Part shown: positions 1 through 5,245 of the stretch, piece after piece
Layout: every line of letters begins with the position of its first letter
Position numbering within the stretch: the first letter of the stretch is position 1
DNA from: a virus
Lineage: Duplodnaviria; Heunggongvirae; Uroviricota; Caudoviricetes
Reading direction: 5' to 3' (one strand)
Length of the DNA: 5,245 nt
Virus record (IMG/VR): IMGVR_UViG_2698536677_000001
Translations under genes and position numbers: made by a program
The notes under the pieces: model-generated
The model's database searches: none
What the model saw: the letters and a program-made list of their open reading frames with translations, nothing else
What the model was told of the DNA's origin: nothing

Positions 1-86
1 CGGCAAACCGGGTACGCGATCTGTTGCCCTGGAAAGTTGATCTGAGCTCTCAGTAAATATCAATACGGTTCTGACGAGTCGCTTAC

Positions 87-707
87 AAAGTTAAAGACCT
101 GACGCCCGGCGAACTGACCGCTGAGTCCTATGACGACAGCTATCTCGATGATGAAGATGCAGACTGGACTGCGACCGGGCAGGGGCAGAAATCTGCCGGA
201 GATACCAGCTTCACGCTGGCGTGGATGCCCGGAGAGCAGGGGCAGCAGGCGCTGCTGGCGTGGTTTAATGAAGGCGATACCCGTGCCTATAAAATCCGCT
301 TCCCGAACGGCACGGTCGATGTGTTCCGTGGCTGGGTCAGCAGTATCGGTAAGGCGGTGACGGCGAAGGAAGTGATCACCCGCACGGTGAAAGTCACCAA
401 TGTGGGACGTCCGTCGATGGCAGAAGATCGCAGCACGGTGACGGCGACAACCGGCATGACGGTGACACCCGCCAGTGCTTCCGTAGTGAAAGGGCAGAGC
501 ACCACGCTGACCGTGGCATTCCAGCCGGAGGGCGCAACCGACAAGAGCTTCCGTGCGGTGTCTGCGGATAAAACAAAAGCCACCGTGTCGGTCAGTGGTA
601 TGACCATCACCGTGAAAGGTGTTGCTGCAGGCAAGGTCAACATTCCGGTCGTATCCGGTAATGGTGAGTTTGCTGCGGTTGCAGAAATCAACGTCACCGC
701 CAGTTAA
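87..707 (+). CDS. V: Major tail (tube) protein V, C-terminal ~207 codons; 5' part missing or disrupted in this window
   Basis: Frame-3 translation from 93 reads [49 protein letters not shown]..., matching lambda gpV, and ends ...[10 protein letters not shown] with TAA at 705-707. The 225..707 ORF in the track is the same frame. Upstream of ~87 the frame has stops at 54-56 and 72-74 and no in-frame ATG/GTG/TTG before 225, so no intact start is present. Confidence 0.85.
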
Positions 708-710
708 TCC

Positions 711-716
711 GGAGAG
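711..716 (+). promoter_or_regulatory. Shine-Dalgarno (GGAGAG) for G
   Basis: GGAGAG lies 6 nt upstream of the G ATG at 723. Confidence 0.6.
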
Positions 717-722
717 TCAGCG

Positions 723-1145
723 ATGTTCCTGAAAACCGAATCATTTGAACATAACGGTGTGACCGTCACGCTTTCTGAACTGTCAGCCCTGCAGCGTATT
801 GAGCATCTCGCCCTGATGAAACGGCAGGCAGAACAGGCGGAGTCAGACAGCAACCGGAAGTTTACTGTGGAAGACGCCATCAGAACCGGCGCGTTTCTGG
901 TGGCGATGTCCCTGTGGCATAACCATCCGCAGAAGACGCAGATGCCGTCCATGAATGAAGCCGTTAAACAGATTGAGCAGGAAGTGCTTACCACCTGGCC
1001 CACGGAGGCAATTTCTCATGCTGAAAACGTGGTGTACCGGCTGTCTGGTATGTATGAGTTTGTGGTGAATAATGCCCCTGAACAGACAGAGGACGCCGGG
1101 CCCGCAGAGCCTGTTTCTGCGGGAAAGTGTTCGACGGTGAGCTGA
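723..1145 (+). CDS. G: Tail assembly chaperone G
   Basis: 140-aa ORF MFLKTESFEHNGVTVTLSELSALQRIEHLALMKRQAEQ...SAGKCSTVS, recognised as lambda gpG; directly follows V and has a good SD. Confidence 0.93.
   Translation: MFLKTESFEHNGVTVTLSELSALQRIEHLALMKRQAEQAESDSNRKFTVEDAIRTGAFLVAMSLWHNHPQKTQMPSMNEAVKQIEQEVLTTWPTEAISHAENVVYRLSGMYEFVVNNAPEQTEDAGPAEPVSAGKCSTVS
1121..1127 (+). promoter_or_regulatory. Slippery heptamer G_GGA_AAG for the programmed -1 frameshift that fuses G to T
   Basis: GGGAAAG sits 6 codons before the G stop, read as G GGA AAG in the G frame. A -1 slip continues in the T frame (GTG TTC GAC ... = VFDGELSFALK) to the stop at 1559-1561. Confidence 0.85.
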
Positions 1146-1561
1146 GTTTTGCCCTGAAACTGGCGCGTGAGATGGGGCGACCCGACTGGCGTGCCATGCT
1201 TGCCGGGATGTCATCCACGGAGTATGCCGACTGGCACCGCTTTTACAGTACCCATTATTTTCATGATGTTCTGCTGGATATGCACTTTTCCGGGCTGACG
1301 TACACCGTGCTCAGCCTGTTTTTCAGCGATCCGGATATGCATCCGCTGGATTTCAGTCTGCTTAACCGGCGCGAGGCTGACGAAGAGCCTGAAGATGATG
1401 TGCTGATGCAGAAAGCGGCAGGGCTTGCCGGAGGTGTCCGCTTTGGCCCGGACGGGAATGAAGTTATCCCTACTTCCCCGGATGTGGCGGACATGACGGA
1501 GGATGACGTAATGCTGATGACAGTATCAGAAGGGATCGCAGGAGGAGTCCGGTATGGCTGA
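1127..1561 (+). CDS. T: Tail assembly protein T, expressed only as the G-T fusion (723..1561 with -1 shift at 1121-1127)
   Basis: Open frame 1127..1561 in the -1 frame relative to G, translating FDGELSFALKLAREMGRPDWRAMLAGMSSTEYADWHRFY..., recognised as lambda gpT. It has no independent ATG or SD, consistent with frameshift-dependent expression. Confidence 0.88.
   Translation: MFDGELSFALKLAREMGRPDWRAMLAGMSSTEYADWHRFYSTHYFHDVLLDMHFSGLTYTVLSLFFSDPDMHPLDFSLLNRREADEEPEDDVLMQKAAGLAGGVRFGPDGNEVIPTSPDVADMTEDDVMLMTVSEGIAGGVRYG
1540..1546 (+). promoter_or_regulatory. Shine-Dalgarno (AGGAGGA) for H
   Basis: AGGAGGA lies 7 nt upstream of the H ATG at 1554, inside the 3' end of T. Confidence 0.65.
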
Positions 1562-4115
1562 ACCGGTAGGCGATCTGGTCGTTGATTTGAGTCTGGATGC
1601 GGCCAGATTTGACGAGCAGATGGCCAGAGTCAGGCGTCATTTTTCCGGTACGGAAAGTGATGCGAAAAAAACAGCGGCAGTCGTTGAACAGTCGATGAAC
1701 CGGCAGGCGCTGGCTGCACAGAAAGCGGGAATTTCCGTCGGGCAGTATAAAGCCGCCATGCGTATGCTGCCTGCGCAGTTCACTGACGTGGCCACGCAGC
1801 TTGCAGGCGGGCAAAGTCCGTGGCTGATCCTGCTGCAACAGGGGGGGCAGGTGAAGGACTCCTTCGGCGGGATGATCCCCATGTTCCGGGGGCTTGCCGG
1901 TGCGATCACCCTGCCGATGGTGGGGGCCACCTCGCTGGCGGTGGCGACCGGTGCGCTGGCGTATGCCTGGTATCAGGGCAACTCAACCCTGTCCGATTTC
2001 AACAAAACGCTGGTCCTTTCCGGCAATCAGGCCGGGCTGACGGCAGATCGTATGCTGGTCCTGTCCAGAGCCGGGCAGGCGGCAGGGCTGACGTTTAACC
2101 AGACCAGCGAGTCACTCAGCGCACTGGTTAAGGCGGGGGTAAGCGGTGAGGCTCAGATTGCGTCCATCAGCCAGAGTGTGGCGCGTTTCTCCTCTGCATC
2201 CGGCGTGGAGGTGGACAAGGTCGCTGAAGCCTTCGGGAAGCTGACCACTGACCCGACGTCGGGGCTGACAGCGATGGCGCGCCAGTTCCATAACGTGACG
2301 GCGGAGCAGATTGCGTATGTTGCTCAGTTGCAGCGTTCCGGCGAAGAAGCCGGGGCATTGCAGGCGGCGAACGAGGCCGCGACGAAAGGGTTTGATGACC
2401 AGACCCGCCGCCTGAAAGAGAACATGGGCACGCTGGAAACCTGGGCAGACAGGACAGCACGGGCATTCAAATCCATGTGGGATGCGGTGCTGGATATTGG
2501 TCGTCCTGATACCGCGCAGGAGATGCTGATTAAGGCAGAGGCCGCGTTTAAGAAAGCGGACGATATCTGGAATCTGCGCAAGGATGATTATTTTGTTAAC
2601 GATGAAGCGCGGGCGCGTTACTGGGATGATCGTGAAAAGGCCCGTCTTGCGCTTGAAGCCGCCCGAAAGAAGGCTGAGCAGCAGAGTCAACAGGACAAAA
2701 ATGCGCAGCAGCAGAGCGATACCGAAGCGTCACGGCTGAAATATACCGAAGAGGCGCAGAAGGCTTACGAACGGCTGCAGACGCCGCTGGAGAAATATAC
2801 CGCCCGTCAGGAAGAACTGAACAAGGCACTGAAAGACGGGAAAATCCTGCAGGCGGATTACAACACGCTGATGGCGGCGGCGAAAAAGGATTATGAAGCG
2901 ACGCTGAAAAAGCCGAAACAGTCCGGCGTGAAGGTGTCTGCGGGCGATCGTCAGGAAGACAGTGCTCATGCTGCCCTGCTGACGCTTCAGGCAGAACTCC
3001 GGACGCTGGAGAAGCATGCCGGAGCGAATGAGAAAATCAGCCAGCAGCGCCGGGATTTGTGGAAGGCGGAGAGTCAGTTCGCGGTACTGGAGGAGGCGGC
3101 GCAACGTCGCCAGCTGTCTGCACAGGAGAAATCCCTGCTGGCGCATAAAGATGAGACGCTGGAGTACAAACGCCAGCTGGCTGCACTTGGCGACAAGGTT
3201 ACGTATCAGGAGCGCCTGAACGCGCTGGCGCAGCAGGCGGATAAATTCGCACAGCAGCAACGGGCAAAATGGGCCGCCATTGATGCGAAAAGCCGGGGGC
3301 TGACTGACCGGCAGGCAGAACGGGAAGCCACGGAACAGCGCCTGAAGGAACAGTATGGCGATAATCCGCTGGCGCTGAATAACGTCATGTCAGAGCAGAA
3401 AAAGACCTGGGCGGCTGAAGACCAGCTTCGCGGGAGCTGGATGGCAGGCCTGAAGTCCGGCTGGAGTGAGTGGGAAGAGAGCGCCACGGACAGTATGTCG
3501 CAGGTTAAAAGTGCAGCCACGCAGACCTTTGATGGTATTGCACAAAATATGGCGGCGATGCTGACCGGCAGTGAGCAGAACTGGCGCAGCTTCACCCGTT
3601 CCGTGCTGTCCATGATGACAGAAATTCTGCTTAAGCAGGCAATGGTGGGGATTGTCGGGAGTATCGGCAGCGCCATTGGCGGTGCTGCCAGTGGTGGAGC
3701 ATCCGCGTCAGGCGGTACAGCCATTCAGGCCGCTGCGGCGAAATTCCATTTTGCAACCGGAGGATTTACGGGAACCGGCGGCAAATATGAGCCAGCGGGG
3801 ATTGTTCACCGTGGTGAGTTTGTCTTCACGAAGGAGGCAACCAGCCGGATTGGCGTGGGGAATCTTTACCGGCTGATGCGCGGCTATGCCACCGGCGGTT
3901 ATGTCGGTACACCGGGCAGCATGGCAGACAGCCGGTCGCAGGCGTCCGGGACGTTTGAGCAGAATAACCATGTGGTGATTAACAACGACGGCACGAACGG
4001 GCAGATAGGTCCGGCTGCTCTGAAGGCGGTGTATGACATGGCCCGCAAGGGTGCCCGTGATGAAATTCAGACACAGATGCGTGATGGTGGCCTGTTCTCC
4101 GGAGGTGGACGATGA
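1554..4115 (+). CDS. H: Tail tape measure protein H
   Basis: 853-aa ORF MAEPVGDLVVDLSLDAARFDEQMARVRRHF...MRDGGLFSGGGR. Length and sequence are recognised as lambda gpH, with a central Ala/Gln/Glu/Lys-rich region and a Gly-rich C-terminal region. It overlaps the T stop by 8 nt. Confidence 0.96.
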   Translation: MAEPVGDLVVDLSLDAARFDEQMARVRRHFSGTESDAKKTAAVVEQSMNRQALAAQKAGISVGQYKAAMRMLPAQFTDVATQLAGGQSPWLILLQQGGQVKDSFGGMIPMFRGLAGAITLPMVGATSLAVATGALAYAWYQGNSTLSDFNKTLVLSGNQAGLTADRMLVLSRAGQAAGLTFNQTSESLSALVKAGVSGEAQIASISQSVARFSSASGVEVDKVAEAFGKLTTDPTSGLTAMARQFHNVTAEQIAYVAQLQRSGEEAGALQAANEAATKGFDDQTRRLKENMGTLETWADRTARAFKSMWDAVLDIGRPDTAQEMLIKAEAAFKKADDIWNLRKDDYFVNDEARARYWDDREKARLALEAARKKAEQQSQQDKNAQQQSDTEASRLKYTEEAQKAYERLQTPLEKYTARQEELNKALKDGKILQADYNTLMAAAKKDYEATLKKPKQSGVKVSAGDRQEDSAHAALLTLQAELRTLEKHAGANEKISQQRRDLWKAESQFAVLEEAAQRRQLSAQEKSLLAHKDETLEYKRQLAALGDKVTYQERLNALAQQADKFAQQQRAKWAAIDAKSRGLTDRQAEREATEQRLKEQYGDNPLALNNVMSEQKKTWAAEDQLRGSWMAGLKSGWSEWEESATDSMSQVKSAATQTFDGIAQNMAAMLTGSEQNWRSFTRSVLSMMTEILLKQAMVGIVGSIGSAIGGAASGGASASGGTAIQAAAAKFHFATGGFTGTGGKYEPAGIVHRGEFVFTKEATSRIGVGNLYRLMRGYATGGYVGTPGSMADSRSQASGTFEQNNHVVINNDGTNGQIGPAALKAVYDMARKGARDEIQTQMRDGGLFSGGGR
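4101..4105 (+). promoter_or_regulatory. Shine-Dalgarno (GGAGG) for M
   Basis: GGAGGTGG ends immediately upstream of the M ATG at 4112. Confidence 0.6.
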
Positions 4116-4441
4116 AGACCTTCCGCTGGAAAGTGAAACCCGGTATGGATGTGGCTTCGGTCCCTTCTGTAAGAAAGGTGCGCTTTGGTGATGGCTATTC
4201 TCAGCGAGCGCCTGCCGGGCTGAATGCCAACCTGAAAACGTACAGCGTGACGCTTTCTGTCCCCCGTGAGGAGGCCACGGTACTGGAGTCGTTTCTGGAA
4301 GAGCACGGGGGCTGGAAATCCTTTCTGTGGACGCCGCCTTATGAGTGGCGGCAGATAAAGGTGACCTGCGCAAAATGGTCGTCGCGGGTCAGTATGTTGC
4401 GTGTTGAGTTCAGCGCAGAGTTTGAACAGGTGGTGAACTGA
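4112..4441 (+). CDS. M: Tail tip/initiator complex protein M
   Basis: 109-aa ORF MKTFRWKVKPGMDVASVPSVRKVRFGDGYSQRAPAGL..., recognised as lambda gpM. Its ATG overlaps the H stop (ATGA). Confidence 0.94.
   Translation: MKTFRWKVKPGMDVASVPSVRKVRFGDGYSQRAPAGLNANLKTYSVTLSVPREEATVLESFLEEHGGWKSFLWTPPYEWRQIKVTCAKWSSRVSMLRVEFSAEFEQVVN
4428..4433 (+). promoter_or_regulatory. Shine-Dalgarno-like AGGTGG for L
   Basis: AGGTGG lies 7 nt upstream of the L ATG at 4441. Confidence 0.5.
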
Positions 4442-5139
4442 TGCAGGATATCCGGCAGGAAACACTGAATGAATGCACCCGTGCGGAGCAGTCGGCCAGC
4501 GTGGTGCTCTGGGAAATCGACCTGACAGAGGTCGGTGGAGAACGTTATTTTTTCTGTAATGAGCAGAACGAAAAAGGTGAGCCGGTCACCTGGCAGGGGC
4601 GACAGTATCAGCCGTATCCCATTCAGGGGAGCGGTTTTGAACTGAATGGCAAAGGCACCAGTACGCGCCCCACGCTGACGGTTTCTAACCTGTACGGTAT
4701 GGTCACCGGGATGGCGGAAGATATGCAGAGTCTGGTCGGCGGAACGGTGGTCCGGCGTAAGGTTTACGCCCGTTTTCTGGATGCGGTGAACTTCGTCAAC
4801 GGAAACAGTTATGCCGATCCGGAGCAGGAGGTGATCAGCCGCTGGCGCATTGAGCAGTGCAGCGAACTGAGCGCGGTGAGTGCCTCCTTTGTACTGTCCA
4901 CGCCGACGGAAACGGATGGCGCTGTTTTTCCGGGACGTATCATGCTGGCCAACACCTGCACCTGGACCTATCGCGGTGACGAGTGCGGTTATAGCGGTCC
5001 GGCTGTCGCGGATGAATATGACCAGCCAACGTCCGATATCACGAAGGATAAATGCAGCAAATGCCTGAGCGGTTGTAAGTTCCGCAATAACGTCGGCAAC
5101 TTTGGCGGCTTCCTTTCCATTAACAAACTTTCGCAGTAA
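4441..5139 (+). CDS. L: Tail tip protein L
   Basis: 232-aa ORF MQDIRQETLNECTRAEQSASVVLWEIDLTEVGGERYFF...FLSINKLSQ, recognised as lambda gpL. Its start overlaps the M stop (TGATG), and it has a C-terminal cysteine cluster. Confidence 0.94.
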   Translation: MQDIRQETLNECTRAEQSASVVLWEIDLTEVGGERYFFCNEQNEKGEPVTWQGRQYQPYPIQGSGFELNGKGTSTRPTLTVSNLYGMVTGMAEDMQSLVGGTVVRRKVYARFLDAVNFVNGNSYADPEQEVISRWRIEQCSELSAVSASFVLSTPTETDGAVFPGRIMLANTCTWTYRGDECGYSGPAVADEYDQPTSDITKDKCSKCLSGCKFRNNVGNFGGFLSINKLSQ

Positions 5140-5144
5140 ATCCC

Positions 5145-5245
5145 ATGACACAGACAGAATCAGCGATTCTGGCGCACGCCCGGCGATGTGCGCCAGCGGA
5201 GTCGTGCGGCTTCGTGGTAAGCACGCCGGAGGGGGAAAGATATTT
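5145..5245 (+). CDS. K: Tail tip assembly protein K, N-terminal 33 codons (runs off the 3' end of the window)
   Basis: ATG at 5145, 6 nt after the L stop; frame-3 translation MTQTESAILAHARRCAPAESCGFVVSTPEGERY matches the N-terminus of lambda gpK as I recall it. No clear SD upstream. Not in the ORF track because there is no stop inside the window. Confidence 0.8.
   Translation, partial: MTQTESAILAHARRCAPAESCGFVVSTPEGERY

Follow-up and report, generated by a model that had tools for sequence, protein, structure and literature searches.

The window, meaning the whole stretch of 5,245 bp that was analysed, was matched by exact-protein look-ups to contig CYFX01000091.1 of the draft assembly GCA_001285605.1, with which it is identical base for base; this contig was seen in two samples. 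It carries the right end of an insertion sequence, followed by a truncated gene V and the genes of a lambda-type tail module, with the following features:

1–86, plus strand: right end of ISCro1, cut by the contig start (86/86 identity to reference copies)
3–56, plus strand: last 17 codons of tnpC (ANRVRDLLPWKVDLSSQ) and its TAA stop, from the frame 3 translation
65–86, plus strand: right terminal inverted repeat, with reverse complement GTAAGCGACTCGTCAGAACCGT, ending in ...GAGTCGCTTAC at base 86
87–94, plus strand: predicted right copy of an 8-bp target-site duplication, AAAGTTAA, the left copy of which would lie outside the contig
87–707, plus strand: 3' fragment of V, codons 41–246 and stop, a pseudogene, mapped to the intact V of a reference prophage
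225–707, plus strand: the 160-aa ORF that is the longest left in the V frame, annotated as gene CTZ82199.1 in the deposited record
723–1145, plus strand: tail assembly chaperone G, intact (PF06894)
1121–1561, plus strand: T frame, an ORF entered via a −1 slippery heptamer (PF06223)
1554–4115, plus strand: tape measure protein H, an intact ORF of 853 aa (CTZ82222.1)
4112–4441, plus strand: tail tip gene M, intact (ORF, Pfam)
4441–5139, plus strand: tail tip gene L, intact (ORF, Pfam)
5145–5245, plus strand: 5' part of K (C40 peptidase), truncated at the contig end (translation); the matches carry the annotation 'C40 family peptidase'

Bases 87–5245 align over their full length, with 99.8% identity, to lambdoid prophages of Escherichia coli in which V, G, T, H, M, and L are intact, and all the genes located 3' of V look functional. 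The G product is identical to lambda G (UniProt name G_LAMBD), and the M and L products likewise match, with full identity, proteins that bear lambda's own names in UniProt. The lambda-type heptamer GGGAAAG (G GGA AAG) is conserved at the G/T overlap, at positions 1121–1127, and we take it to be the −1 frameshift site, from the known lambda G/GT. By this analogy, the G–T fusion chaperone should still be made. The exact H sequence is found on this contig only in a collection of 15 billion proteins, and the 90% cluster to which it belongs has 26,172 members, making it a private allele of a very common protein.

When bases 1–800 were searched by megablast against 5426 complete E. coli genomes, the query divided at 86/87. 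The matches for bases 1–86 are annotated as 'IS66-like element ISCro1 family transposase', and those for bases 87–800, which show 100% identity to intact V/G in many genomes, as 'phage tail protein' or gpG. Aligning the window start to host genomes, as the first-pass annotation had proposed, thus returns ISCro1, and not V, for the first 86 bases. These are identical (86/86) to the last 86 bp of the ISCro1 (IS66 family) copies in reference loci L001 and L002, which are 2699 bp long, lie between perfect 8-bp duplications, and contain tnpA, tnpB, and tnpC; the same tnpA-tnpB-tnpC organisation (~2.7 kb) is present in references L014–L018.

Two features typical of this family are found in the 86 bases. 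The tnpC gene reads towards the right end of the element, of which 17 codons and the stop are present, and the window's frame 3 is identical to the end of the L001 product (WP_000381395.1), which terminates in ...DWPANRVRDLLPWKVDLSSQ followed by the stop. The terminal repeat is imperfect and begins 5'-GTAAGCG, and the two ends of a full ISCro1 copy (GTAACCGGCTCATTTAAACCGT and GTAAGCGACTCGTCAGAACCGT) match at 16 of 22 positions. The remainder of this ISCro1 copy falls beyond the contig end. The boundary between IS and V coincides with the last nucleotide of the IS terminal repeat (base 86). Such a boundary is the mark left by transposition rather than by decay, substitution, or a random chimera. 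The 86 bases should not be read as a novel sequence or a recombination product. ISCro1, an IS66-family element, has undergone expansion in Citrobacter rodentium and also occurs in E. coli ST131 (PMC3072379, PMC8764528), and the IS elements of such genomes lie disproportionately in prophages and islands (PMC3072379). An ISCro1 in a prophage V was not reported in the ISCro1 literature searched (PMC3072379, PMC8764528).

The V stop codon is located at 705–707, and as reference for the complete gene we used the intact V of L013 (NZ_CP142915.1), which has 246 codons. Window base 87 aligns to nt 121 of this gene, i.e. codon 41 in phase 0, and bases 87–707 correspond to V nt 121–741 of intact homologues, so that V nt 1 would fall 34 nt upstream of the window. 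This agrees with the first-pass annotation, which had placed the V start about 34 nt upstream; it had also correctly recognised the KVKDL motif as V, although the homology begins at base 87 (K41 of this motif) and not at 93. Its observation of stops in all three forward frames at the window start holds at the positions it gave. Overall, the stops up to base 130 are at 43, 100, and 115 in frame 1, at 38, 92, and 122 in frame 2, and at 54 and 72 in frame 3, the latter two closing the V frame upstream. The first ATG, GTG, or TTG in the V frame past the last stop is ATG 225, as had been noted before, which corresponds to codon 87 and opens the 160-aa ORF (hereafter V').

Lambda gpV consists of an N-terminal tube domain and a C-terminal Ig-like Big_2 domain. 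The V of the window keeps codons 41–246, with homology over both the tube and the Big_2 domains, and V' matches PF16461 Phage_TTP_12 (partial) and PF02368 Big_2. Compared with lambda gpV, however, codons 1–40 are missing, together with the start codon and the ribosome-binding site, and there is no complete ORF with its own start; the gene is thus a pseudogene and not a working V. A rescue of the fragment by an outward promoter or an internal restart was rejected, given that no promoter-like site was found in window positions 1–760 and that the ORF starts only at codon 87.

As the window is an entire draft contig, position 1 is a contig break inside a multicopy repeat. Bases 1–92 alone match 6559 places, on chromosomes and plasmids, in 2063 of the 5426 complete E. 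coli genomes, and this IS end is thus a repeat of the type at which assemblies break. Short-read assemblers normally produce unique contigs that extend briefly into a multicopy repeat and then end, and the length of 86 bases would correspond to k−1 for a k-mer of 87. At the other side, the contig stops 101 nt into K. The L/K segment is present in a median of two copies per E. coli genome, and in up to 13, because of which this 3' end, too, is plausibly an assembly break, at a repeat common to co-resident lambdoid prophages.

Taking these observations together, a simple insertion of ISCro1 into V, combined with a contig break inside the IS, is very probably the correct explanation. An ISCro1 element (~2.7 kb, tnpA-tnpB-tnpC) would have transposed into V of a lambda-like E. 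coli prophage, where it reads in the direction of the tail operon. Assuming the usual 8-bp duplication, AAAGTTAA, the insertion point would be V nt 128/129. The multicopy ISCro1 would then not have been resolved by the short-read assembler, leaving a contig with V'-G-T-H-M-L that begins 86 bp inside the IS right end, and placing the rest of the IS and the 5' stub of V on other contigs. In this process, V would be split into a stub of 43 codons and a promoterless, start-less 3' fragment. The right flank of the duplication, AAAGTTAA (87–94), is alone visible in the contig, and we infer that the IS copy is full-length and that a left junction with the target duplication exists.

A simple insertion makes specific predictions for the left side. 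The junction there is expected to read ...GGCAAAAGTTAA/GTAACCGG..., such that a contig of CYFX01 should end with ...GGCAAAAGTTAA followed by GTAACCGGCTCATTT, and GGCAAAAGTTAAGTAACCGGCTCATTT is the sequence expected on the left-side contig carrying the V stub. The frame of the stub would run through K41-V42-K43 and then meet a TAA provided by the IS's own GTAA, to give a product of 43 aa. This exact 43-aa peptide is present in a public protein collection (P0001), under the accessions CTT19449.1, CTY21967.1, CTZ33261.1, and CTZ78696.1, in a cluster whose representative is a 52-aa fragment. The V' ORF is found as CTT32658.1, CTY36018.1, CTZ45047.1, and CTZ82199.1, so that the stub and V' share the same four ENA accession blocks, in one of which the H protein of the window (CTZ82222.1) is also included. 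In the simplest reading, four related assemblies each carry both halves of V. This co-occurrence gives circumstantial support to a simple insertion, since the accessions of one genome do not run consecutively: V' and H, three genes apart, have accession numbers that differ by 23.

The contig ends within the IS and its left side is outside the contig, as would also be the case if the far side of ISCro1 was not the 5' stub of V, following an adjacent deletion or a recombination or inversion between two IS copies. In that case, the head genes, U, and the V start would either have been deleted or be found elsewhere. Such IS-associated rearrangements have a precedent in the complex arrangement of this region in L019, where two tandem ISCro1 copies lie beside a U fragment. 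Nevertheless, we consider this unlikely, as the very 43-aa stub that a simple insertion would yield is on record, within the accession blocks that also contain the window proteins, and as simple insertions with perfect duplications account for six of the eight ISCro1 copies examined nearby.

A chimeric misassembly, in which reads of an ISCro1 located elsewhere were wrongly joined to an intact V, could be suspected for a short draft contig with a junction that is found in no finished genome. Yet the join sits precisely on the final nucleotide of the IS terminal repeat, the point at which transposition links DNA and which a random chimera would not hit; moreover, the same 160-aa V' ORF was called under four ENA accessions and the contig was seen in two samples, making an assembly error highly improbable. 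Finally, the proposal of the first-pass annotation that the 5' region of V was substituted by, or decayed into, an unrelated segment of the same length can be dismissed, as this equal length is the one point in its favour and is itself due to the contig edge, whereas the 86 bases are a perfect ISCro1 right end (86/86) with no similarity to V, bounded by the terminal nucleotide of the IS and followed directly after base 86 by sequence identical to V. The length match is uninformative: the contig breaks off 86 bp inside the IS, and whatever foreign sequence extends to an edge will seem to fit in length. This is a textbook example of how a contig edge within a repeat mimics a replacement.

The exact right junction was absent from all the sets searched, namely GTDB representative genomes (34-mer), JGI metagenome contigs (24-mer), and IMG/VR (24-mer), all by exact-pattern scan, and a megablast of an 80-bp junction against the 5426 complete E. 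coli genomes found the two halves solely as separate pieces with other spacings. Thus, there is no finished reference for this insertion, and the insertion at V nt 121 is an independent event so far known from this draft lineage only. Other contigs with the identical 160-aa V' ORF were also considered as a possible upstream extension, and the nine displayed, of the 24 read, have neither the IS end nor the junction; they are otherwise disrupted or metagenome assemblies and are not relevant here.

The tail tube subunit of lambda is gpV. With V split and its 3' fragment lacking a start, the prophage presumably cannot make its own tail tube, and it would be unable to produce virions unless V came from a co-resident lambdoid prophage. 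The statement of the first-pass annotation that no intact major tail protein can be made from this locus is supported, and V lacks codons 1–40 here. Of the three options that this annotation had offered, two, a defective prophage and an assembly boundary, turn out to be true at once. The appropriate annotation for the locus is a V pseudogene disrupted by an IS, within a lambdoid prophage that is defective or depends on complementation. The disruption of a prophage gene by an IS is an ordinary and already known kind of event, and apart from correct annotation the present case is of little consequence.

The nearest known parallel is E. coli WS0115A (NZ_CP035882.1; L001), which shares with the window the IS, its orientation, the gene, and the prophage type, and in which the IS end is identical to the 86 bp of the window. 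In this strain V is also divided, with the short 5' stub and the long 3' fragment annotated as pseudogenes by RefSeq, and both junctions are visible. In contrast, its insertion site is at V nt 104, 17 bp upstream of that of the window, with the duplication ACTGGTCG, which indicates an independent event. Across complete genomes, ISCro1 insertions with perfect 8-bp duplications were found at V nt 104, 54, −6, −26, −48, and −429, these being the six clean insertions among the eight copies examined in the prophage region. GZ2408C has ISCro1 within V at nt 54, with a perfect 8-bp duplication, and NCTC86 at about nt 75, where the left end was read by eye only. In 1504D004, EC1722-1, and A1, the element is located just upstream of V, again with perfect 8-bp duplications, and V is left intact.

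The frequency of ISCro1 in this region was assessed with synthetic IS-end/V junction queries against complete E. coli genomes, counting ISCro1 within 540 bp upstream of each position, with the following results:

V nt 121 (Z end / U / V-5'), same orientation as the window: 12 genomes, at least 7 sites
V nt 121 (Z end / U / V-5'), opposite orientation: 10 genomes, at least 4 sites
Window position 5001 (L), same orientation: 1 genome, 1 site
Window position 1601 (end of G / T / H start), same orientation: 0 genomes, 0 sites

ISCro1 is thus present at no fewer than 11 other sites, in both orientations, in the U/V-5' region of other E. coli prophages, to be compared with controls that comprise two positions in one orientation each and small numbers. 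Any insertion in the tail operon would inactivate the tail, and the regional difference therefore points to a target preference and not to selection. We tentatively suggest that the Z/U/V-5' segment (~550 bp) of lambda-like E. coli prophages could be a regional hot spot for ISCro1, with this contig as one more independent hit, although we rate this as somewhat short of an even chance. Among the duplicated 8-mers no consensus is visible, and GC content is unremarkable. The repeated, independent targeting of U/V by ISCro1 across E. coli is a mildly interesting by-product of this analysis.

Two further arrangements were observed among the reference loci. In E. coli O103:H2 strain 129 (NZ_AP038976.1; L019, 1–3540), the two ISCro1 copies are arranged head-to-tail directly upstream of the U fragment, which is annotated without its N-terminus. 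In NZ_CP081192.1 (L018, 934–3540), the ISCro1 copy is decayed, with 2607 bp versus 2699 bp and a tnpC annotated as frameshifted, and it keeps a perfect 8-bp duplication, TCATTACC.
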